The notes beneath the pieces are model-generated. The model made no database searches. It worked only from the letters and a program-made list of their open reading frames with translations, and was not told the origin of the DNA. A stretch of DNA of 64,000 nt, taken from the NCBI RefSeq assembly GCF_028368995.1, contig NZ_JAQNDL010000001.1, positions 2,560,001-2,624,000 of the forward strand. The letters run 5' to 3'. The position numbers were made by a program, and so were the translations under genes. How positions within the stretch are numbered: position 1 is the stretch's first letter; each line of letters begins with the position of its first letter. Origin of the DNA: Nannocystis bainbridge. Its GTDB lineage: Bacteria; Myxococcota_A; Polyangia; Nannocystales; Nannocystaceae. Of this stretch, positions 1,647-62,862 are shown piece after piece.

Positions 1647-2273
1647 GTGAGCCCCGGATCTCCGCGCTGGACCGCCGTTCGGGCCTTCCTCGGTCGGCAC
1701 GCCTACGTCGCCCTGGCGGCCGGCGCGCTGCTCGTGCTCACCCGCACCGTCGACTTCGCCCCGCCGCCGCTCGTCCGCCCCGACCCGTCCGCGCACGGTG
1801 GCGCCGGCGGGCCGGTCGAGGTCCAGGAGTTCTCGCCCGAGCTGCGCAACCCCCGGGTCATGCAGCTGCGCCTGGTCCTGCGCCGCTACGACGACCCCAA
1901 GCTGCCGGTCAAGGCCGACGACCACGCCCTCGACGACCGCGGCGACGTGCTGTCCTCGCCGCTCGTCACCGCCGTGGTCGGCACCGAGGCCGCTGTCGAC
2001 CAGAAGGTCGGCCTCGAGGGCGGCGACCTGCAGGTCCGCCTCGGCCTGCGCGCGACCCCGCGGCTGGGCCCCGGCGGCGCGACCACGCTCGAGCACACGC
2101 TCGAGGTCCACAGCGAGCGCGCCGGCTGGCGCGGCCACCCCGAGCGCCCGGTGTTCGTCGCCGGCGGCGTGGCCTCCGAGCTCGAGAACCGCAGCCAGCG
2201 CTGGGTGTTCGCCGTCGACGACCACCTGTTCAGCCTCGACCTCGAAGCCGTGCGCCCCGGCGGCCCGGTCTGA
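1647..2273 (+). CDS. Hypothetical protein with N-terminal membrane anchor
   Basis: 3' part of ORF 1410..2273 with typical GC3-rich codons and the hydrophobic stretch AYVALAAGALLVL. The GTG 1647 start is uncertain. Confidence 0.65.
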   Translation: MSPGSPRWTAVRAFLGRHAYVALAAGALLVLTRTVDFAPPPLVRPDPSAHGGAGGPVEVQEFSPELRNPRVMQLRLVLRRYDDPKLPVKADDHALDDRGDVLSSPLVTAVVGTEAAVDQKVGLEGGDLQVRLGLRATPRLGPGGATTLEHTLEVHSERAGWRGHPERPVFVAGGVASELENRSQRWVFAVDDHLFSLDLEAVRPGGPV

Positions 2274-2360
2274 GCGCGGGGCCGACGCACGGCGCCGGGG
2301 CGTAAGAGCCCCCCTGGACTCGCCGTCCGCGGCTCACGAGCGCCGCACGCGGCCGTTCTC

Positions 2361-2454
2361 TTGCATGGTCGAAGCGACATGCGCTTTCCAACATGCCCTC
2401 GGAGACATGCCCTCTCGGACATGCTCTTCGGGACATTCCCGCGAGGACATGTCC
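2361..2454. repeat. 14-bp-period CATG-core array, 7 units
   Basis: Cores at 2364, 2378, 2392, 2406, 2420, 2434 (CATT) and 2448, between convergent genes. Confidence 0.9.
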
Positions 2455-2455
2455 G

Positions 2456-3028
2456 TCAGCGCCGGTACGGGTCGGCGACGCGGGCCAGCAGGGTCGCCTC
2501 GAAGGTGCGCAGCGCGAGCATCGTCCGCCGCAGCTCGGCGAACACGTGCGCCAGGTCGGGGCCGTCCGGGTACAGCACCTCTTCCCACAGGTCGTCGCTG
2601 CGGTCGAACACCCCGCGGCGGAACAGCGCCGCGTAGAAGGGGGCCGGCCCGAGCCCGAGCCCGAGCAGGACCAGGCGATCGCGCTCGTCGAGCCGGCGGA
2701 ACAGCAGCAGCCACTCCCACAGCGCGCGCCGGGCCTCGCCGATCGCGCGGTCGTAGGCGTCGCAGCGGGCCCGCCGACCCCACGGCGTCTCCGGGGCCAG
2801 CGGGTTGTCCCAGTCGGCCAGCGGGGTCGCCAGCGCGTGCCGCACGACGCGCGCCTGGCGGGCCAGCTCGCCGAGCCCGCGGCTCAGGTGGGCCGTGCTC
2901 GGATCGTCGTCGCCGTCGCTGAGGGCCAGCAGCTCGCGCAGCCGGGCGTCCCGCTCGCGCTCCCGCGACCACCAGCGCGCCGCTGCCGCGGCCGTGACCC
3001 CTGCGCCGACGGTGATCGCCCAGCTCAT
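2456..3028 (-). CDS. Hypothetical protein with N-terminal membrane segment
   Basis: MSWAITVGAGVTAAAAARWW..., the ordered C-terminal 190 aa of ORF 2456..3277. Confidence 0.7.
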   Translation of the reverse strand: MSWAITVGAGVTAAAAARWWSRERERDARLRELLALSDGDDDPSTAHLSRGLGELARQARVVRHALATPLADWDNPLAPETPWGRRARCDAYDRAIGEARRALWEWLLLFRRLDERDRLVLLGLGLGPAPFYAALFRRGVFDRSDDLWEEVLYPDGPDLAHVFAELRRTMLALRTFEATLLARVADPYRR

Positions 3029-3239
3029 GCCTTTTAAAAGATGATCGACGCCGGGCGCGAACTCAAGGGCGCCGGGGGGCGCACATTCGCCCGCGACATG
3101 TTCTTTAGGACATGTACGAACATTGCCCGCCCGCCGCGCGACGCCGACGCGGTCGCGCCCTCGCGGCGCTCGCCCGCGCTGCAGCGCAGAGCTCGCCCCG
3201 GCGGCCGCGCGTCCGGCCGGTTCGGTCCCGATCGATCCC

Positions 3240-23438: not shown

Positions 23439-24431
23439 TCAGAACACCTCGCGCACCAGCTGGAGCACGCGCCCGCCGCGGCTCGCGCGCGCCGGCGTGC
23501 GCGCGCCCGCGTCGGTGCCCGGCAGGTCGGCGATCAGGCGGTGCAGCCCCGGATCGTGGGCCTCGCCCTGCGGACGCAGCGCCCCGCGGACGAACGCCAG
23601 CAGCGCCGCGCCCGTCCACACGACCTTCTCGAGCGCCGGCACCACCGTGCGCCCGGCCAGCGCGTCGCCGCCGTGACGCCGCAGCCGCAGCCCGATCGCC
23701 CGGTACACCCGGCTGGCCACCACGATCGCCAGCCGCGTGCGCCACGGGATGAACCGCAGCCCCGCGTCGGCGCTGGCATAGTAGCGCTCGGCCAGCGCCA
23801 GCACGTCGAGCACCACCGAGGCCACCGCCTCGCGCCCGGCCGTCCCGTCCAGCAGCGCCGCCGGGCTGGTGCCGGCGAAATCGAGCCGCGTCTCCGGCAG
23901 GTACACCCGCCCGCGCCCGGCGTCCTCGGCGACGTCGCGGGCGATGTTGGTCAGCTGCATGGCGATCCCGAGGTCGAGCGCGAACGGCGTGGCCTGCGGA
24001 TCGCGGGCGCCGATCACCCCGCACATCATCAGCCCGACGGTCCCCGCGACCTGGTAGCAGTAGCGCAGCAGCGCCGCGTCGTCGGGCAGCGCCACCGGCC
24101 CGGCGTCGGCGCGCACGCCCGCGATCAGCTCGTGGGCCACGCGCAGCGGCACGCCCCAGCCGGCCAGCAGATCGCGGTAGCACGCGACGAGCGGCCGCGC
24201 CGGCGCGGCCCCCGAGAGCTCGGCCTCGATCGCCCCGACGTCCGCCAGCCCCTCGCCCGGCGCCTGCGCCTCGTCGACCACGTCGTCGACCAGCCGGCAG
24301 AACGCGTACACCACCGCCGCCTCGTCGAGCCGCTCCGCCGGCAGGAACCAGCCCGCCAGGTCGAACGTCCGCGCGTGCCGGGCCAGCGTCGCCCGGCTCT
24401 CGGCCACCACCCGCGCGCGGTCGTAGCTCAT
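23439..24431 (-). CDS. crtB: Phytoene synthase
   Basis: YAFCRLVDDVVDE, YCYQVAGTVG and LGIAMQLTNIARDVAED...RVYLP. ATGA overlap with crtI. Confidence 0.93.
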   Translation of the reverse strand: MSYDRARVVAESRATLARHARTFDLAGWFLPAERLDEAAVVYAFCRLVDDVVDEAQAPGEGLADVGAIEAELSGAAPARPLVACYRDLLAGWGVPLRVAHELIAGVRADAGPVALPDDAALLRYCYQVAGTVGLMMCGVIGARDPQATPFALDLGIAMQLTNIARDVAEDAGRGRVYLPETRLDFAGTSPAALLDGTAGREAVASVVLDVLALAERYYASADAGLRFIPWRTRLAIVVASRVYRAIGLRLRRHGGDALAGRTVVPALEKVVWTGAALLAFVRGALRPQGEAHDPGLHRLIADLPGTDAGARTPARASRGGRVLQLVREVF

Positions 24432-25954
24432 CGGCCCGCTCCTCGCATGTCTCTTGCGACATGTCCCTTGCGACCTGGCTCCGGCATCACCCGCTCGAGC
24501 ACCTTGGCCGAGCACAGCACCCCCGGCATGCCCGCCCCCGGGTGGGTCCCGGCGCCGACGAAATACAGCCCGCGCACGTCCTCGGAGGTGTTGTGATAGC
24601 GGAAGTAGGCCGACTGGGTCAGCCGCGGCTCAGGCCCGAACGCCGCCCCGCCGTACGACTGCAGCGTCGTCTCGAAGTAGCGCGGCGTCACGTGCTTGCG
24701 GGTGACGATGTGCTCGCGCAGGCCCGGCACGTGCTGCTCGGACAGGAAATCGACGATCTTGCCGAAGTAGTCCGCGCCGAGCCGGTCCCAGTCGAGCCCC
24801 TCGGCCTGGGTGTTCGGCACCGGCGAAAGCACGTAGAACGCCTCGCAGCCGGGCGGCGCGAGGTTGGGGTCGGTCCGCGTCGGCGCGTGCAGGTACAGCG
24901 AGAAGTCCTCGGCCAGGATCTTGCGCTCGAAGATGTCCTCGAGCAGCTCGCGGTAGCGCGGCCCGAGGATGATGGTGTGGTGCGCCAGCTCGGGCCAGGT
25001 GCGGTCGGTGCCGAAGTAGCCGACGAACAGCCCCATCGAAAGCTTCTTGCGCTTGACCAGGAAGTCGTTGTTCCACCGACGGTGCCGCGGGGCCACGAGC
25101 CGGGTGTAGACGGTCGCCGGGTCGGCGTTGCTGACGACCGCTCCGCAGGCGATCCGCTCGCCCGCCGCCGTGCGCACCGCCGTCGCCCGCCCGCCCTCGA
25201 CCTCGATCTCCGCCACCGACGCGCCGAGCCGCACCTCGACCCCGAGCTCGTCCAACAGGCGCACCATCGCCTTGACGATCGCCGTCGTCCCACCGAGCGC
25301 GAACTCGACGCCCCACTTGCGCTCGAGCCAGTGGATCAGCGCGTAGATCGCCGGCGCGCGGAACGGGTTGCCGCCGATCAGCAGCGGCTGGAACGTGAAC
25401 ACCTGCCGCAGCCGCTCGTCGGCGATCGACCGGCTGACCCACTCGTACATCGAGCGCCAGCAGCCGAGCCGGGCCAGGTCAGGCACGATCTTCAGCATGT
25501 CGCCGAAGCGATCGAAGGGCCGGTCGACCAGCTCGGTGTAGCCGATGTCGAAGATCTCGCGGGCCTGGGCGGCGAGCCGGCGATAGCCGTCGACGTCGCG
25601 CGGCGAGAATTGCTCGATCTGCGCCAGCAGCCGCGCCTCGTCGCCCACGTAGTCGAACGCCGAACCATCGGGGAACAGCACGCGATAGAACGGATCGACC
25701 GGGACGAATTGCACGTAGTCCCGCCGCTCGCGCCCGACCAGCGCGAACAGCTCGTCGAAGAGGTGACTCGCGGTGACCACCGTCGGCCCGGCGTCGAACG
25801 AGAACCCGTCCTGCTCGAACACCGCGGCGCGCCCGCCCGGCTGGTCCATCGCCTCGAGCACCAGGACCTCGTGGCCGCGGGCCCGCAGGCGGATCGCCGC
25901 CGCCAGCCCCCCGAGCCCCGAACCGATCACGATCACCCTGTCCTGCTCGCTCAT
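24428..25954 (-). CDS. crtI: Phytoene desaturase
   Basis: VIGSGLGGLAAA, FDAGPTV and LYFVGAGTHPGAGMPGVLCSA. Confidence 0.94.
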   Translation of the reverse strand: MSEQDRVIVIGSGLGGLAAAIRLRARGHEVLVLEAMDQPGGRAAVFEQDGFSFDAGPTVVTASHLFDELFALVGRERRDYVQFVPVDPFYRVLFPDGSAFDYVGDEARLLAQIEQFSPRDVDGYRRLAAQAREIFDIGYTELVDRPFDRFGDMLKIVPDLARLGCWRSMYEWVSRSIADERLRQVFTFQPLLIGGNPFRAPAIYALIHWLERKWGVEFALGGTTAIVKAMVRLLDELGVEVRLGASVAEIEVEGGRATAVRTAAGERIACGAVVSNADPATVYTRLVAPRHRRWNNDFLVKRKKLSMGLFVGYFGTDRTWPELAHHTIILGPRYRELLEDIFERKILAEDFSLYLHAPTRTDPNLAPPGCEAFYVLSPVPNTQAEGLDWDRLGADYFGKIVDFLSEQHVPGLREHIVTRKHVTPRYFETTLQSYGGAAFGPEPRLTQSAYFRYHNTSEDVRGLYFVGAGTHPGAGMPGVLCSAKVLERVMPEPGRKGHVARDMRGAGR

Positions 25955-26022
25955 GCCGCTGCGCGAGTGTATCGCCGCAGGCCGCCGGAACACGCCCGCG
26001 GCACCCGTGGTATCCTCACTTC

Positions 26023-26604
26023 GTGACCGCCGCCACCTATGCCGACCTCGTCGCCCACCCCGACGACGTCAAGTCAGAGGTCCTCGGTGGCGAGCTCGTG
26101 ACCCAGCCGAGCGCGACCTTTGGTCACTGTTACGTGCGGAGCGGGCTCGGTCGACTGCTCGGCGGACCTTTCGACTTCGACGACGACGGTCCGGGAGGCT
26201 GGTACATCGTCACCACCGACCTCGACGTCCGCTTCACGGACCACGACATCGTCCGGGCCGACGGCATCGGCTGGCTCCGCCCTCGCCTCGACGGTCGGTA
26301 CGATTCGCTCCCGATCGACGTGGTCCCCGACTGGATCTGCGAGGTCCTATCCCCCTCCTCGACCAAGCGCGACCGCCTGCACAAATTTCAGCTCTACGCC
26401 CGCCACGGCGTCCCTCACTACTGGCTCGTCGATCCCGAGGCGCGCCTGCTCGAAGCCTATGCGCTCGTCGGCGGCGGGTGGAAGAGCATCGGCGTTTACG
26501 ACGAGACCGCCCGCGTCCGCATCGCCCCGTTCGAGGCTATCGAGCTGCCGGTCGGTCACCTCTTCCTGCCCGAGCCGGAAAACCCGGCACCCGCGGCGAC
26601 CTGA
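26023..26604 (+). CDS. Uma2-family (PD-(D/E)xK) endonuclease
   Basis: EVLGGEL...PDWICEVLSPS...YARHGVPHYWLVDP. Confidence 0.9.
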   Translation: MTAATYADLVAHPDDVKSEVLGGELVTQPSATFGHCYVRSGLGRLLGGPFDFDDDGPGGWYIVTTDLDVRFTDHDIVRADGIGWLRPRLDGRYDSLPIDVVPDWICEVLSPSSTKRDRLHKFQLYARHGVPHYWLVDPEARLLEAYALVGGGWKSIGVYDETARVRIAPFEAIELPVGHLFLPEPENPAPAAT

Positions 26605-26755: not shown

Positions 26756-31432
<4,677 letters not shown>

Positions 31433-49288: not shown

Positions 49289-49861
49289 GTGGAGGCCGCG
49301 CGCAAGCTCAAGACCTACGAGGATCTGCTGGCGATCCCCGAAGAGGTGCGCGCCGAGCTGCTCGCCGGCGAGATCATCGCCCAGCCCGGCGGCCTGTCCG
49401 ATCACAGCCGCGTGCAGCGCAGCATGAGCCGCTTCATCGGCGGCCCTTTCGACGACGACACCGACGGCCCGGACGGTTGGTGGATCTTCCTCGAGATGGA
49501 CGTCCGCTTCACGCGCCACGACGTCACCCGCCCGGACCTGGTCGGCTGGCGCCGCTCCCGGCTGCCCGCTCCCGCCGGCATGCGCCCGATCGACGTCGTC
49601 CCCGACTGGATCTGCGAGGTCCTCTCGCCCTCCAACGCCCGCCACGACCGCGTGTTCAAGGCCCGGCTGTACGCCGAGCACGGCGTCCCTTATTACTGGC
49701 TGATCGACCCGGCCGAGCGGACCCTCGAGGCTTATGTCCTTCGGGACAGCCAGTGGCTGCGCGCCGGCGCCTGGGACGACACCGAGGTCGCCCGCGTCCC
49801 GCCGTTCGAGGCCATCGAGCTGCCGGTCGGTCGGCTGTTCTTCCCGCGGCCGCCGACCTGA
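49289..49861 (+). CDS. Uma2-family endonuclease, paralog of 26023..26604
   Basis: RPDLVGW, PDWICEVLSPS and GVPYYWLIDP. Confidence 0.9.
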   Translation: MEAARKLKTYEDLLAIPEEVRAELLAGEIIAQPGGLSDHSRVQRSMSRFIGGPFDDDTDGPDGWWIFLEMDVRFTRHDVTRPDLVGWRRSRLPAPAGMRPIDVVPDWICEVLSPSNARHDRVFKARLYAEHGVPYYWLIDPAERTLEAYVLRDSQWLRAGAWDDTEVARVPPFEAIELPVGRLFFPRPPT

Positions 49862-58564: not shown

Positions 58565-58984
58565 ATGGCCTTCGACAGCGACACCCTCAACTCGATCTAC
58601 GCGTCCACTCAGGGCTTCTGTCATCGTTGCCGCCGCAAGCTCGCGTTCTCGCGGTTCGGTTGCGACGACGGTCGCGGCGCCTGGGACATCGACGCCGTCC
58701 GTCCGCACCCCAAGGTCACCGCCTTGCTGCCGGGCTGCCTGCGCTGCGTGCAGAAGCCGACCCCACGGCGCGTGCCGAGGCGAACCTCCGCACCGGCGCC
58801 CGCGGTCGTCGTCGACAAAAAGCCGGCCGCGAGCGAACCCCATGGCGAGCCGCCCGGGACCTCCGACGAGCCGCCGATCGGCGACACCGCCCTCGTCGGC
58901 GGCGCCGCCGGGGCCGTGCTCGGCGGCCTGTGGGGCGCCGTGCTCGGCGGCCTCATCGCCATCGGCCTCCAGCTGTGGGGCTGA
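58565..58984 (+). CDS. Degenerate HNH-like zinc-finger protein with glycine-zipper tail
   Basis: CHRC...GAWDIDA...LLPGCLRC, then GGAAGAVLGGLWGAVLGGLI. Confidence 0.7.
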   Translation: MAFDSDTLNSIYASTQGFCHRCRRKLAFSRFGCDDGRGAWDIDAVRPHPKVTALLPGCLRCVQKPTPRRVPRRTSAPAPAVVVDKKPAASEPHGEPPGTSDEPPIGDTALVGGAAGAVLGGLWGAVLGGLIAIGLQLWG

Positions 58985-59091: not shown

Positions 59092-59457
59092 TCAGCCGGG
59101 CACGAACTCGAACGGGTAGCTCACCTGCACCCAGCCGTCGCTGGACGCCGGGAACTTCCACGTCTGCACGGCCGCCGCCACGCAGCTCTCGACCTTCGCG
59201 TCGGCGATCGTCGAGCCTTGCTGGATCTGGCTACTGCTGACCTCCCCGCTGGGGACGATCTCGAAGTCCACCGTCAGCTTGCCGGCCAGCGTCGGTTTGC
59301 GCGCCAGGCCCTCGTCATAACATTGGCGGACCTCCTGGAGGTGCGTTTGCACGACCTCGCGGATCTCCTCCTTGTCGAGCGGGACGCCGCCGGCCTGGGC
59401 CGGGCCCGTCGCCGTCACGATCGTGGTGATGAGCCCTGCTGAAAACAATCTGCGCAT
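59092..59457 (-). CDS. Secreted AgmX/PglI C-terminal (TonB_C-like) domain protein
   Basis: Signal peptide and IREVVQTHLQEVRQCY...LAGKLTVDFEI..SG...CV....WKFP...VSYPF. CAGGAG RBS. Confidence 0.9.
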   Translation of the reverse strand: MRRLFSAGLITTIVTATGPAQAGGVPLDKEEIREVVQTHLQEVRQCYDEGLARKPTLAGKLTVDFEIVPSGEVSSSQIQQGSTIADAKVESCVAAAVQTWKFPASSDGWVQVSYPFEFVPG

Positions 59458-59484
59458 GATGTCGTGTCTCCTGTTCGCTCCGTC

Positions 59485-59511
59485 TCACGAGCCCGCGAGC
59501 GCGGAGTTCCC
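59485..59511 (-). promoter_or_regulatory. Putative ECF promoter GGGAAC-N16-CGTGA for the AgmX/PglI gene
   Basis: Minus strand reads GGGAAC (59511-59506), 16 nt, CGTGA (59489-59485). Confidence 0.7.
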
Positions 59512-59680
59512 GGGCCTGTGATCTTGTCGCCTGCCTCGATCCGCCGACGCCCGCGACTTACGAGACCCGCGGGTCGACGCGCATCTCCGGAGATCGTCAG
59601 CGGCTCGGGGCCACGGGCGCACGCGCGCATGGCCCTGGAACCCCGCCAAACAGCCCTTCTCGTGCTTTTTTGCGCCGATC

Positions 59681-59707
59681 GGGAACCCGCGGCGGCCCCG
59701 CCCGTGA
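59681..59707 (+). promoter_or_regulatory. Putative autoregulatory ECF promoter GGGAAC-N16-CGTGA
   Basis: GGGAAC 59681-59686, 16 nt, CGTGA 59703-59707, ending 9 nt before the sigma GTG. Confidence 0.7.
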
Positions 59708-59716
59708 CACCCTCCC

Positions 59717-60328
59717 GTGACCGCCCTCGCCTCGCGGGACCCTGACGCCGTGCAGCCCCGACCACCGCCCGACGAGCTCGACGAACTCACCCTGGCCCGC
59801 GCGCAGCGGGGTGACGCGAGGGCGCGCAGGGACCTCGTGGTGCGCTACCAGCGGCCGGTGTTCGCCCTGCTGTCGCGCATGCTGCACGGGCGAGCCGCCG
59901 CGCCGCTGGTCGAGGACCTGGCCCAGGAGACCTTCTTGCGGGTGTTTCGCGCCCTCGAGGGCTTCGATCGCCGCGGCCCGGCGCGGCTCTCGACCTGGAT
60001 CTTGACGATCGCCAGCCGGCTGGCGATCGACGAATTGCGGCGGCGCCGGCCCGAGGTCGCCCCGATCGATCCGTCCGCCGAGCCTGCGGGCCACGCCGCC
60101 GCCGACGCCGACGCCGAGCGCGTGCGTCTGGCCGCTGCCCTGCAGCACGCGATCGACGATCTGTCCCCCGAGTTCCGCGCCGCCTTTATGCTGCGCGAGT
60201 ACCACGAGCTCGAATACTCCGAGATCGCCGACAACCTGCAGGTCGATCTCGGCACCGTGAAGTCTCGACTGTCTCGCGCTCGCGCCGCCCTGCGCCGCGC
60301 CCTGGAGGAGGTGTACCGTGCACGATGA
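59717..60328 (+). CDS. ECF RNA polymerase sigma factor
   Basis: Region 2 EDLAQETFLRVF...LSTWILTIA and region 4 LEYSEIA...GTVKSRLSRAR. Confidence 0.94.
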   Translation: MTALASRDPDAVQPRPPPDELDELTLARAQRGDARARRDLVVRYQRPVFALLSRMLHGRAAAPLVEDLAQETFLRVFRALEGFDRRGPARLSTWILTIASRLAIDELRRRRPEVAPIDPSAEPAGHAAADADAERVRLAAALQHAIDDLSPEFRAAFMLREYHELEYSEIADNLQVDLGTVKSRLSRARAALRRALEEVYRAR

Positions 60329-62021
60329 ACCCCGCACCGACGCCGAGCGCCGCGCCCTCGCGGCGTTCACCGCTGCCGAGCCGCCGCCCGACTTCGCCGA
60401 CCGCGTGCTCGCGGCCGTCGCCGCCGAGGGCCAGCGCGAGCCCGGACATGTCCCGCTCGGCCGCCTGTTCGGCCTCGGCTGGCCCCGCCTCGCCGGCGTC
60501 GCCGCGGCCGGGGTCGTCGCCGTCGCCGTCGCTGCGGTCGCCGCCGCGTCCGCCGGCTGGATGCCCGCATGGACAGGTCTCTCGCGACATGTCCCCGAGG
60601 TCATGCCCGCCGAGCCCGCGCGCGACGACGCCCCGGTGACCGCGGCTCTGCCCCCGGGCCCGCCGACGCCAGCGCTGGCGCTGCCGGCCGACCTCGCGGA
60701 CCGCGTCGACGCCTACGTCGGCGCGTTCGGCCGCAACTACGGCGACGCCTTCAAGTTCCACGGCGTGGTCGGCGTGGTCAAGGACGGCGAGCTGGTGCTG
60801 ACCCGCGGCTACGGCCGGGCCGACATCGAGCGCGACAGCCCGATCGACGCCGACACGAAGTTCAAGATCGGCTCGCTGACCCAGACCTTCACCGCAGTGG
60901 CGGTGCTGCAGCTGCGCGACCGCGGCCTCGTCGACCTCGACGCACCTGTCCGCAAGTACATCCCCGACTATCCGGCGCTCGGCAACCGGATCACCGTGCG
61001 CCACCTGCTCACCCACACCTCGGGGATCCCCAGCTACACCGACGCGGCCGTGTTCGCGGTCGGGCACACGCGCGCCGTCGCGGCCGCCGACGTGCGGGCG
61101 ATCTTCCAGGACATCGAGCTGGAGTTCGCGCCGGGCACCGACTTCGACCTCAGCAACTCGGGTTATTTCATGCTCGGGCTGTTGGTCGAGCAGGTCGCGC
61201 GCCAGCCGTTCGCCGACTACCTGCGGGAGAACGTGCTCGCGCCCGCGGGTATGAAGAACAGCGGGGTCGGCCTCGCCGCGACCGCGCTCGGCCACGAGTT
61301 CGACGAGAACGAGGTGCTCGTGCCCGCGGCGCAGCGCCATCCTTCGGCCTACGGCGCGGCCGCCGGCATGGTCTCGACCGCCGCCGACCTGGCCCGCTGG
61401 GACCGCGCCCTGCGCACCCCGGGCCTCGTGCTGGCGCAGAAGAGCCTCGACGAGATGACGACCGTCGTGCGCGACGAGTACGGCATGGGCTGGTTCGTGC
61501 GCACCGACGCCACCGGACCTATCGCCTGGCACCCCGGCGGCGTCGAGGGTTACAACGCCACGATCGCCCGCTTCCTCGGCGACGGCGTGACCGTGTTCGT
61601 GCTGGCCAACACCGAGGCCGTCGACACCCGCGCGATCGCCTACGACGTGGCGCAGATCGCCCACGGCGGCGACGTCGCGCCGCCGCGCGAGTACGACGAG
61701 ATCCGGCTTTCGAGCGCGCAGCTCGGTCGCTACGTCGGCACCTTCGCGTTGACCGAGACGTCGCACAAGCAGCTGAAGGGCTTGGTCGAGGACGGCGAGC
61801 TCCTGGCGATCGAGCAGGTCCGCGTGTTCCGCACCGGCGACCGCCTGTGGATGAACGTGCCGGAGCACGGCGACAAATGGATGCACTTCATGGGCGACGA
61901 CCGGTTCTTCTTCAAAGATCCGTCGGCCACGATCGCCGAGTTCGGGCCTCCGGGCGCCCCCGTCGCTCATCTCACGCTGCAGTCCGGGGAACTGCGTTTC
62001 ATCCTCAAGAAGAAGGAGTGA
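60318..62021 (+). CDS. Putative anti-sigma factor fused to a beta-lactamase/serine-hydrolase-family domain
   Basis: Overlaps the sigma stop. N-terminal PPPDFADRVL plus a transmembrane helix, then F.IGSLTQ, LLTHTSG, F.PG..FDLSNSGY and WHPGG. Confidence 0.85.
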   Translation: MHDEPRTDAERRALAAFTAAEPPPDFADRVLAAVAAEGQREPGHVPLGRLFGLGWPRLAGVAAAGVVAVAVAAVAAASAGWMPAWTGLSRHVPEVMPAEPARDDAPVTAALPPGPPTPALALPADLADRVDAYVGAFGRNYGDAFKFHGVVGVVKDGELVLTRGYGRADIERDSPIDADTKFKIGSLTQTFTAVAVLQLRDRGLVDLDAPVRKYIPDYPALGNRITVRHLLTHTSGIPSYTDAAVFAVGHTRAVAAADVRAIFQDIELEFAPGTDFDLSNSGYFMLGLLVEQVARQPFADYLRENVLAPAGMKNSGVGLAATALGHEFDENEVLVPAAQRHPSAYGAAAGMVSTAADLARWDRALRTPGLVLAQKSLDEMTTVVRDEYGMGWFVRTDATGPIAWHPGGVEGYNATIARFLGDGVTVFVLANTEAVDTRAIAYDVAQIAHGGDVAPPREYDEIRLSSAQLGRYVGTFALTETSHKQLKGLVEDGELLAIEQVRVFRTGDRLWMNVPEHGDKWMHFMGDDRFFFKDPSATIAEFGPPGAPVAHLTLQSGELRFILKKKE

Positions 62022-62073: not shown

Positions 62074-62103
62074 TTGACAACGCCGCGCCGGCGCTCGTAT
62101 CGT
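62074..62103 (+). promoter_or_regulatory. sigma70-type promoter
   Basis: TTGACA (62074-62079), 18 nt, TATCGT (62098-62103). Confidence 0.6.
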
Positions 62104-62124: not shown

Positions 62125-62862
62125 ATGTCCAAACGTTCTGTACTCTCGGGCCATGTCGTGACGCGCAGCTTGATGTTCGCCCTGCCGTGGGCGCTCCTGG
62201 CCGCGCCCGCTTGCGACGGCGGCGAGCGCAAGTCGATCGCCGACCAGATCGGTCCGCCGACCAAGAAGCTGTCGGAGCTCAAGCAGGACAGCGGCGTGTC
62301 GGATGAGGAGCTGGCGCGCCGCCGCAAGGAGGCCGGCTTCAAGACCAAGTCCGAGGTCGACGCCGAGCTGGCGGCCGAGAACGCCAAGGAGATGGAGAAG
62401 TCCGAGCGCGAGTGGATCAAGACGCGCATCAAGGAGTACAAGCAGCTCGACGTCGACACCCGCAAGTTCATCGACGACGTCGAGAAAGAGGCCGGCAAGT
62501 GGGCCGCCGCCAAGGACCCGCAGAAGGCCGCCGACAAGGGCGTCAAGCCGCTGCAGGACCGCTTCAAGGCGCTGATCAAGCAGATCGACAAGCTGTCCGA
62601 GCGCAGCACCAAGGGCGGCAACACCCAGGCCAGCTACAACAAGCTGTTCCGCCCGCTCGAGGAGGTCGCGAACAACCTCGGGCCGGCGATCGCCAGCGAG
62701 GCCGGGTTCACCGAGGCCCTCAAGAACGCGCGCACCGAGCTCGATGGGCTCGACAAGGCGCTCGAGGAGATCGAGAAGGACGAGACCCTCACGGTCAACA
62801 AGTTCAAAGACGGCGAGGGTGAGGGCGACGCCGAGGCCAAGGACGCGAAGAAGAAGAAGTAA
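62125..62862 (+). CDS. Lys/Glu-rich coiled-coil lipoprotein
   Basis: LLAAPAC lipobox-like signal, charged helical body and strongly biased codons. Confidence 0.8.
   Translation: MSKRSVLSGHVVTRSLMFALPWALLAAPACDGGERKSIADQIGPPTKKLSELKQDSGVSDEELARRRKEAGFKTKSEVDAELAAENAKEMEKSEREWIKTRIKEYKQLDVDTRKFIDDVEKEAGKWAAAKDPQKAADKGVKPLQDRFKALIKQIDKLSERSTKGGNTQASYNKLFRPLEEVANNLGPAIASEAGFTEALKNARTELDGLDKALEEIEKDETLTVNKFKDGEGEGDAEAKDAKKKK

Follow-up and report, generated by a model that had tools for sequence, protein, structure and literature searches.

What does a hydrolase domain without its catalytic residues do when it is joined to a short N-terminal segment and encoded directly behind an extracytoplasmic function (ECF) sigma factor? 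The question is raised by a locus of Nannocystis bainbridge, which lies in a 64,000-nucleotide (nt) stretch of contig NZ_JAQNDL010000001.1 (hereafter the window; G+C content about 73%). Here an ECF sigma factor gene is followed by a gene for a protein of 567 amino acids (aa), in which a putative anti-sigma segment, one membrane helix and a domain of the beta-lactamase and penicillin-binding protein (PBP) fold are fused (Table 1). We found that the lysine and the tyrosine of the catalytic motifs are missing from this domain and from every fused homolog examined. The probable answer, which builds on the observed architecture, catalytic-residue loss, family-wide conservation, sigma adjacency and promoter-motif conservation, is that the two genes encode an ECF sigma factor and a single-pass anti-sigma factor whose periplasmic sensor is a dead S12-type domain descended from D-stereospecific peptidases. 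This sensor would act as a non-covalent receptor, with release of the sigma factor by proteolysis.

Catalytic motifs of the outer domain

The gene behind the sigma factor is built as the original prediction had described it: it overlaps the sigma stop codon by 11 nt and encodes a short N-terminus, one hydrophobic segment and a full hydrolase-family domain. A Pfam search of the 567-aa protein returned PF00144 and no other domain, and in particular no M56 protease. The fold and profile expected of the S12/PF00144 family are present, as is the third motif, whilst the SxxK lysine and the YxN tyrosine are absent. The codons first read as S-L-T-Q at 60873 and as L-S-N are in place, the latter at 61149, and alignment to solved enzymes agrees with that reading. 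In HMMER alignments to 2qmi, 4y7p and 9s7k, Q189 falls opposite the SxxK lysine (IGSITKSF, IGSVTKTF) and L278 opposite the YxN tyrosine (YLNTGY, YSNTGY).

An AlphaFold2 (AF2) model of the whole protein gave a mean predicted local distance difference test score (pLDDT) of 81.7, with residues 120-567 confident. Foldseek aligned the model over 468-500 columns with the IS11 esterase (7spn), Pab87 (2qmi), DAP (1ei5) and SurE (6ksu), and the nearest solved relatives include Pab87, alkaline D-peptidase, a D-stereospecific hydrolase, DAP and the R61 DD-peptidase. Like the S12 or 'CubicO' D-peptidases Pab87 (2qmi), alkaline D-peptidase (4y7p), DAP (1ei5) and R61, the protein combines a PBP-like domain with a C-terminal barrel (E-values of 4e-30 to 5e-20 by sequence and down to 2e-27 by Foldseek) and shares their Asn and HxG motifs. 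Those relatives are active soluble enzymes with SxxK and YxN, whereas the fusion has Gln and Leu at these positions and adds an N-terminal module and a membrane anchor. Judged from the alignments, the outer domain is related to the penicillin-binding D-peptidases, conserved and catalytically dead.

The family was surveyed in an alignment of the window protein and 235 homologs of at most 700 aa (236 rows), in which proteins carrying the N-terminal EPPxDFADRV module were counted as fused. A further 33 proteins longer than 700 aa, mostly with tandem domains, were excluded; none of the 33 aligned to the N-terminus in BLAST. The lysine and the tyrosine were both missing in all 57 fused rows. Both were present in 164 of the 172 unfused full-length rows, seven unfused rows had neither, one lacked the lysine only, and another seven rows were too partial for scoring. 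The seven unfused proteins without either residue comprise two labelled as partial at source, one with a degenerate N-terminus and four 'T-L/M-S-A' proteins. Database records name family members 'serine hydrolase' or 'beta-lactamase family protein' despite the missing catalytic residues, and such labels are a warning for annotation.

The K-to-Q and Y-to-L exchanges of the original prediction hold as losses in 57 of 57 fused rows but only partly as exact residues. Position 189 is Q in 49 rows, E in five, and H, G or S in one each; position 278 is P in 34, L in 19, A in three and F in one. Ser186 is kept in 45 rows and replaced in the remaining 12 by T (five), L (four), N, V or A (one each). All 57 rows have N280, P406 and G407, and position 405 is H in 46, Y in seven and F in four. 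Proline at position 406 occurs in 2% of active relatives.

Strain-specific decay or a sequencing artefact, for which nothing speaks beyond the two substitutions themselves, was rejected and has practically no probability. The open reading frames (ORFs) are intact, the same losses recur in all 57 fused homologs, which range down to about 35% identity with the window protein, and the dead clade is monophyletic. The ratio of nonsynonymous to synonymous substitution (dN/dS) falls within the range of neighbouring genes. The earlier view that the protein is a genuine pseudoenzyme, and that its substitutions are not errors of sequencing, is thus upheld, no fused homolog having retained the lysine or the tyrosine.

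A quick phylogeny of 71 rows under LG+G4 (28 of the 57 fused, six odd unfused and 37 of the 164 active; unrooted, from a short search) placed all 33 rows without Lys and Tyr, 28 fused and five unfused, on one side of a branch with SH-aLRT support of 100. The unfused 'TLSA' group is nested within this dead side with weaker support (84-85). Lys and Tyr were apparently lost once, early in the Nannocystaceae/Myxococcota lineage, and the non-catalytic domain seems to have been kept since.

One unfused member of the dead clade was seen in a Nannocystaceae metagenome-assembled genome (MAG; locus L013, 3539-5005, plus strand). Its motifs read T-M-S-A, P-S-N and W-P-G, and a lipoprotein-type signal peptide replaces the anti-sigma N-terminus. 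Divergently upstream (2067-3161, minus strand) lies a 364-aa ORF with a sub-threshold match to sigma-70 region 4 (E = 0.0035). Proteins P0145, P0165, P0176 and P0258 belong to the same unfused dead subgroup. Separately, P0128, P0139, P0166 and P0178, amongst the tandem PF00144 proteins of over 700 aa, combine an intact domain with one or two in which SxxK/YxN is missing. Dead copies of the PF00144 fold therefore have more than one origin.

Part of the strongest clade-specific conservation is found away from the former catalytic pocket, in the C-terminal barrel, where residues 514-534 are gapped or different in active relatives. This stretch is a candidate for a new functional surface. It might also be read as a sign that the protein is still an enzyme whose catalytic residues have been relocated, with for example Lys520, His517 or His523 reaching the pocket. 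The clade-specific Lys and His residues show 88-95% conservation, and the C-terminal domain of DAP extends a loop as far as the active site. However, the 12 fused members without Ser186 (L, V, A, N or T in its place) retain the C-terminal motif, which is also found in the unfused dead subgroup. Because the motif persists where Ser186 is lost, restoring catalysis together with this serine cannot be its role, and we regard a relocated active site as extremely unlikely. The old pocket region seems to matter still, since Asn280, the HxG strand and the invariant P406 are retained.

Table 1. Features of the sigma and fusion locus, in window coordinates
Feature	Position	Strand	Details
Secreted 121-aa AgmX/PglI C-terminal (TonB_C-like) protein	59092-59457	-	NF033768 E 7.9e-32, PF03544
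Second GGGAAC-N16-CGTG copy, facing the divergent gene	59486-59511	-	About 30 nt upstream of the TonB_C-like gene
Putative ECF-type autoregulatory promoter, GGGAAC-N16-CGTG	59681-59706	+	11 nt upstream of the listed sigma start
ECF sigma factor gene	59717-60328	+	203 aa, GTG start
Anti-sigma and dead PF00144/S12-type domain fusion gene	60318-62021	+	567 aa, GTG start
Cytoplasmic N-terminal module, residues 1-50, putative short anti-sigma domain	60318-60467	+	Helices 8-16 and 26-38; conserved EPPxDFADRV
Single Ala/Val/Gly-rich transmembrane segment, residues ~58-80	60489-60557	+	Hydropathy scan
Pro/Ala-rich periplasmic linker, residues ~81-123, poorly conserved	60558-60686	+	Alignment; pLDDT <50
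Beta-lactamase/PBP-like domain, residues 149-445	60762-61652	+	PF00144 E 1.2e-62, profile positions 16-325 of 329
S186-L-T-Q189 where SxxK is expected	60873-60884	+	TCG CTG ACC CAG; alignment to solved enzymes
L278-S-N280 where YxN is expected	61149-61157	+	CTC AGC AAC; alignment to solved enzymes
H405-P-G407, third motif (HxG/KTG-type) retained	61530-61538	+	Aligns with the HxG strand
C-terminal beta-barrel, residues ~460-567, like the lipocalin-type domain of Pab87, IS11, SurE and DAP	61695-62018	+	AF2 strands, Foldseek
Clade-specific motif VPxHGxKWMHxxGxDRFFFKD, residues 514-534	61857-61919	+	86-100% of fused members
Lys/Glu-rich putative lipoprotein, lipobox LLAAPAC	62125-62862	+	Synteny in window, L001 and L002

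The sigma factor and its modelled contact with the N-terminal module

The sigma protein matches Sigma70_r2 (PF04542; E = 7.6e-17) and r4_2 (PF08281; E = 2.9e-15), matches PF07638 as well, and scores 98 bits against TIGR02937 (cutoff 42.9). With sigma-2 and sigma-4 domains alone in about 200 aa, it has the layout of a group IV (ECF) sigma-70 factor. Homologs with 61-96% identity occur in Nannocystis, Nannocystaceae and Myxococcota records. Amongst named relatives, the best are from Nannocystis. The GTG start of the fusion gene is supported by its homologs, since all full-length ones begin with MHDEP, and this gene is predicted to be co-transcribed with the sigma gene.

The order of the two genes, with the fusion immediately downstream of sigma, is the same in the window, in Nannocystis sp. 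RBIL2 (L001; fused protein 85% identical) and in a Nannocystis MAG (L002; 46%). The adjacency to ECF genes that the original prediction proposed to look for amongst homologs was found in 3 of the 3 fused loci inspected. One contig scan with generic patterns gave 80 loci, comprising two fused members, the unfused dead relative at L013 and 77 others, all active homologs without an adjacent match to the window sigma. Moreover, 14 of the 45 family rows P0001-P0045 agree in longest-contig size with a sigma ortholog (among the 120 listed), and seven of these 14 size-matched contigs are no longer than 16 kilobases. This suggests that fusion and sigma lie on the same contig, adjacency not thereby being proven.

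The fusion protein has one hydrophobic segment capable of crossing the membrane, with a Kyte-Doolittle 19-residue mean of 2.43 and no other stretch above 1.6. The sigma factor was modelled in complex with residues 1-50 of the fusion by pairing the two family alignments, which were our own. The complex reached ipSAE values of 0.81, 0.80 and 0.81, whilst the best of three controls scored 0.00. Amongst solved complexes 116 of 157 reach this mark, and amongst mismatched pairs 2 of 215 do, counts that are only a rough guide here because our own alignments were used. The runs share at least 89% of their contacts, with a partner pLDDT of at least 75. In the modelled interface, partner residues 3-37 touch sigma residues 34-77 (sigma-2) and 135-143, 161-162 and 189-200 (sigma-4); the pairs of lowest error link the PPxDFADRV helix, at partner residues 20-33, with sigma-2. 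The model supports binding of sigma by the N-terminus of the 567-aa protein, in line with what had originally been proposed.

The module differs from a class I anti-sigma domain (zf-HC2/RskA/RseA-type, with four helices and at least 50 aa) in that it gave no profile match and has two predicted helices. The ASDI survey set a lower limit of 50 aa on the domains that it kept (PMC7406223). A search with residues 1-45, a short query run against proteins of 311-993 aa only, found eight proteins, every one of the same family, which hints weakly that the module is family-specific. Its two short helices, placed by the model on sigma-4 and sigma-2, are consistent with a class II (CnrY-like) anti-sigma domain. 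CnrY itself is small and acts together with CnrX, a separate sensor in the periplasm. As in the CnrY-CnrH pair of Cupriavidus metallidurans, a very short two-helix cytoplasmic N-terminus is followed by one membrane helix, and modelled residues 3-37 of the fusion touch both sigma domains. Of the CnrY helices, the first binds sigma-4 and the second sigma-2 (PMC7406223). Unlike CnrY, the fusion carries a fused sensor of 450 residues, and the likeness is one of modelled contacts.

A proposed receptor and its alternatives

In the mechanism that we favour, the two-helix N-terminus (residues ~3-37) would clamp sigma-2 and sigma-4 in a CnrY-like, class II-type manner and the clamped sigma factor would be held at the membrane. 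The periplasmic sensor would be a former D-stereospecific S12 peptidase, of PBP/beta-lactamase fold with a C-terminal barrel, in which most of the pocket scaffold survives, together with the Asn and the HxG strand, and in which P406 and the HGxKWMH...RFFFKD motif have been gained. It would bind its ligand non-covalently, the candidates being a D-amino-acid peptide (a peptidoglycan stem peptide or a peptide antibiotic) or a protein partner. By analogy with other single-pass systems, binding would open the linker and membrane region to regulated proteolysis and so free the sigma factor; proteolytic release would fit the Ala/Gly-rich membrane helix and the disordered linker, which are however no proof of it. 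Free sigma would then transcribe its own operon from the GGGAAC-N16-CGTG promoter and, in this species, the divergent gene for a secreted TonB_C-like protein as well.

A D-amino-acid peptide is the most economical guess for the ligand, because the nearest active relatives are D-stereospecific peptidases. Muropeptide binding by the dead domain is possible. Carried further, the proposal is that in the predatory Nannocystaceae the fused dead D-peptidase serves as a non-covalent receptor for D-amino-acid peptides, whether stem peptides of prey or self or the antibiotics of competitors, which is read out through the barrel surface and proteolysis. We offer this pathway tentatively, as a possibility that may well prove wrong. 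If true, it would give the first example of a pseudo-PBP receptor that is coupled directly to a sigma factor.

The main rival to a D-amino-acid peptide is a protein partner. The dead domain would then be a protein-binding or protective cap, in the manner of RseB on RseA or of inactive LytM domains, and proteases would gain access to the anti-sigma factor once the envelope is damaged or the partner is lost. The new barrel motif fits this idea, being the strongest clade-specific conservation and kept both without Ser186 and in the unfused lipoprotein subgroup, and inactive LytM domains that regulate autolysins offer a precedent (PMC10336132). Such a cap nevertheless leaves N280, G407 and P406, invariant in 57 of 57 members, to be accounted for, since they suggest that the old pocket still matters. 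Its partner might be an active hydrolase, the conserved downstream lipoprotein or the cell wall. The lipoprotein is syntenic in the window, L001 and L002 but has its own sigma-70-like promoter. We judge the cap rather unlikely, though deserving of attention.

The original prediction had favoured a muropeptide or beta-lactam-like ligand and an analogy with BlaR1 or the SigP/RsiP/PbpP system, that is, a sensor of the BlaR1/MecR1 or PbpP-RsiP kind in which a beta-lactam in the old active site frees the sigma factor. BlaR1 crosses the membrane with four helices, its class D-type sensor is acylated, and its zinc-protease domain cleaves a repressor. The fusion resembles BlaR1 and MecR1 in that a single membrane protein carries an extracellular domain of beta-lactamase fold as sensor and would control transcription. 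Its fold lies within the penicillin-recognising family, and Ser186, Asn280 and the HxG strand are retained in the window copy. Unlike BlaR1, it has a dead class C/S12-type domain, one membrane helix and an N-terminus that is modelled to bind sigma.

The RsiV-sigmaV and RsiP/PbpP-sigmaP systems of Bacillus likewise have single-pass anti-sigma factors, theirs being freed by regulated proteolysis after extracytoplasmic recognition of a protein or ligand. Beta-lactam-responsive ECF systems exist, and the sensor PbpP has a PBP fold, but PbpP is a separate, catalytically competent PBP that needs Ser301, and its S301A variant no longer activates sigma-P (PMC8092216). Here the domain is fused, Lys and Tyr are missing in 57 of 57 members, and serine is present in 45 and missing in 12. 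Covalent beta-lactam sensing is unlikely because known sensors need an acylated serine, whereas in this family the general-base residues are always absent and the serine is often absent, and because the 567-aa protein has no M56 domain. The conserved neighbourhood is also without a beta-lactamase or PBP gene; a survey of the 32 other ORFs in the window found no PBP, beta-lactamase, site-2 protease or peptidoglycan gene. The beta-lactam ligand and both analogies are thus not supported, and we consider such a sensor very unlikely.

Several observations weigh against the non-covalent receptor model that we prefer. Esterases and cyclases (IS11, SurE, Ulm16) are among the near relatives of the outer domain, so a D-peptide ligand is only one reading of its ancestry. 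For the N-terminus, Pfam gave no match to residues 1-70 at E <= 10, anti-sigma families included, and in the Atlas no more than a weak lead came up, which pointed to zf-HC2 clusters (score 0.88, 87 shared features). Sigma/anti-sigma complexes have been solved in other families, and the success of the complex model may partly reflect likeness to these. The gene context of fused members was viewed directly at three loci only, namely the window, L001 and L002. Against L001, dN/dS (NG86) was 0.38 for the fusion gene, 0.06 for sigma, 0.27 for the CaCA gene and 0.44 for the lipoprotein gene, values that are unreliable because a third-position G+C content (GC3) of 94% compresses dS; against the distant L002, a pair for which the ratio is uninformative, the fusion gave 0.82 and its neighbours 0.47-0.97. 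The strict promoter motif occurs only twice in the window, both times in the divergent intergenic region, a count that is not significant (2 against 0.65 expected, with 2 or more in 13 of 100 shuffles), and a relaxed GGAAC-N15-17-CGT pattern occurs 12 times. The TonB_C-like gene is absent beside sigma in L002.

Anti-sigma factors are modular, yet the sensing domains of most ECF systems are uncharacterised. Enzyme-family sensor modules on anti-sigma factors, as in RsgI, and PBP-dependent ECF activation, as in PbpP, are already known. The RsgI anti-sigma-I factors of Clostridium thermocellum resemble the fusion in using enzyme-family (GH10, GH5) or binding modules as surface sensors (PMC6852018). 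They differ in their sigma-I class, N-terminal domain, polysaccharide sensing and Gram-positive hosts. Full-text searches of the literature found no beta-lactamase-fold or pseudo-PBP domain fused to an anti-sigma factor. The main text and the available part of the supplement of the ECF reclassification describe no such fusion (PMC7826278), and later ECF groups may lie outside its coverage.

Here an enzyme fold apparently turned receptor once and was then conserved over at least 57 distinct sequences, and the new invariant residues probably mark the site of the new function. The system could show how myxobacteria perceive cell-wall-derived or D-peptide signals. It is also compact for testing, with one sigma factor, one promoter motif and one soluble domain.

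Promoter motifs and neighbouring genes

The assignment of GGGAAC-N16-CGTG as the sigma factor's own promoter is putative and rests on position, orientation and conservation. With the preceding base, the motif upstream of sigma reads CGGGAAC-N16-CGTG. Its -35 and -10 blocks are kept in L001 (4365-4388) and L002 (4368-4391), whilst spacer and flanks diverge. Only 11 nt separate the end of the putative -10 element from the listed sigma GTG (59703-59750 region). Because the block stands so close to this codon, either the sigma mRNA is near-leaderless or translation in fact begins further in, at the in-frame GTG of position 59750. The latter would give a protein of 192 aa and is fitted by sigma homologs of 190-192 aa.

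The interval of the original prediction began at 59092, which is not the start of the sigma gene but the end of the separate TonB_C-like gene on the minus strand (59092-59457). That gene is a candidate member of the regulon. It is syntenic in L001, and the minus-strand copy of the motif is retained there with a different spacer (4157-4134).

Downstream of the fusion, the lipoprotein gene and a CaCA exchanger gene are syntenic in all three loci. The lipoprotein matched no Pfam family, and any link between it and the sigma system is hypothetical. Its sigma-70-like promoter (TTGACA at 62074-62079, N18, TATCGT at 62098-62103) is conserved in L001 and L002. The TTG at 62074, listed as the start of a 262-aa ORF, is the -35 box of this promoter, so the protein more likely starts at the ATG at 62125.

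Other genes of the window were noted in passing. Just beyond the TonB_C-like gene, a 139-aa ORF (58565-58984, plus strand) has its first 72 residues 94% identical in L001 and gave no Pfam or NCBIfam match. Putative endonucleases of the Uma2 family are encoded at 26023-26604 and 49289-49861, both on the plus strand. Phytoene/squalene synthase and amine-oxidase-type desaturase genes adjoin at 23439-25993 (minus strand) and probably form a carotenoid cluster, and a gene for a 1558-aa Lhr-type helicase occupies 26756-31432.

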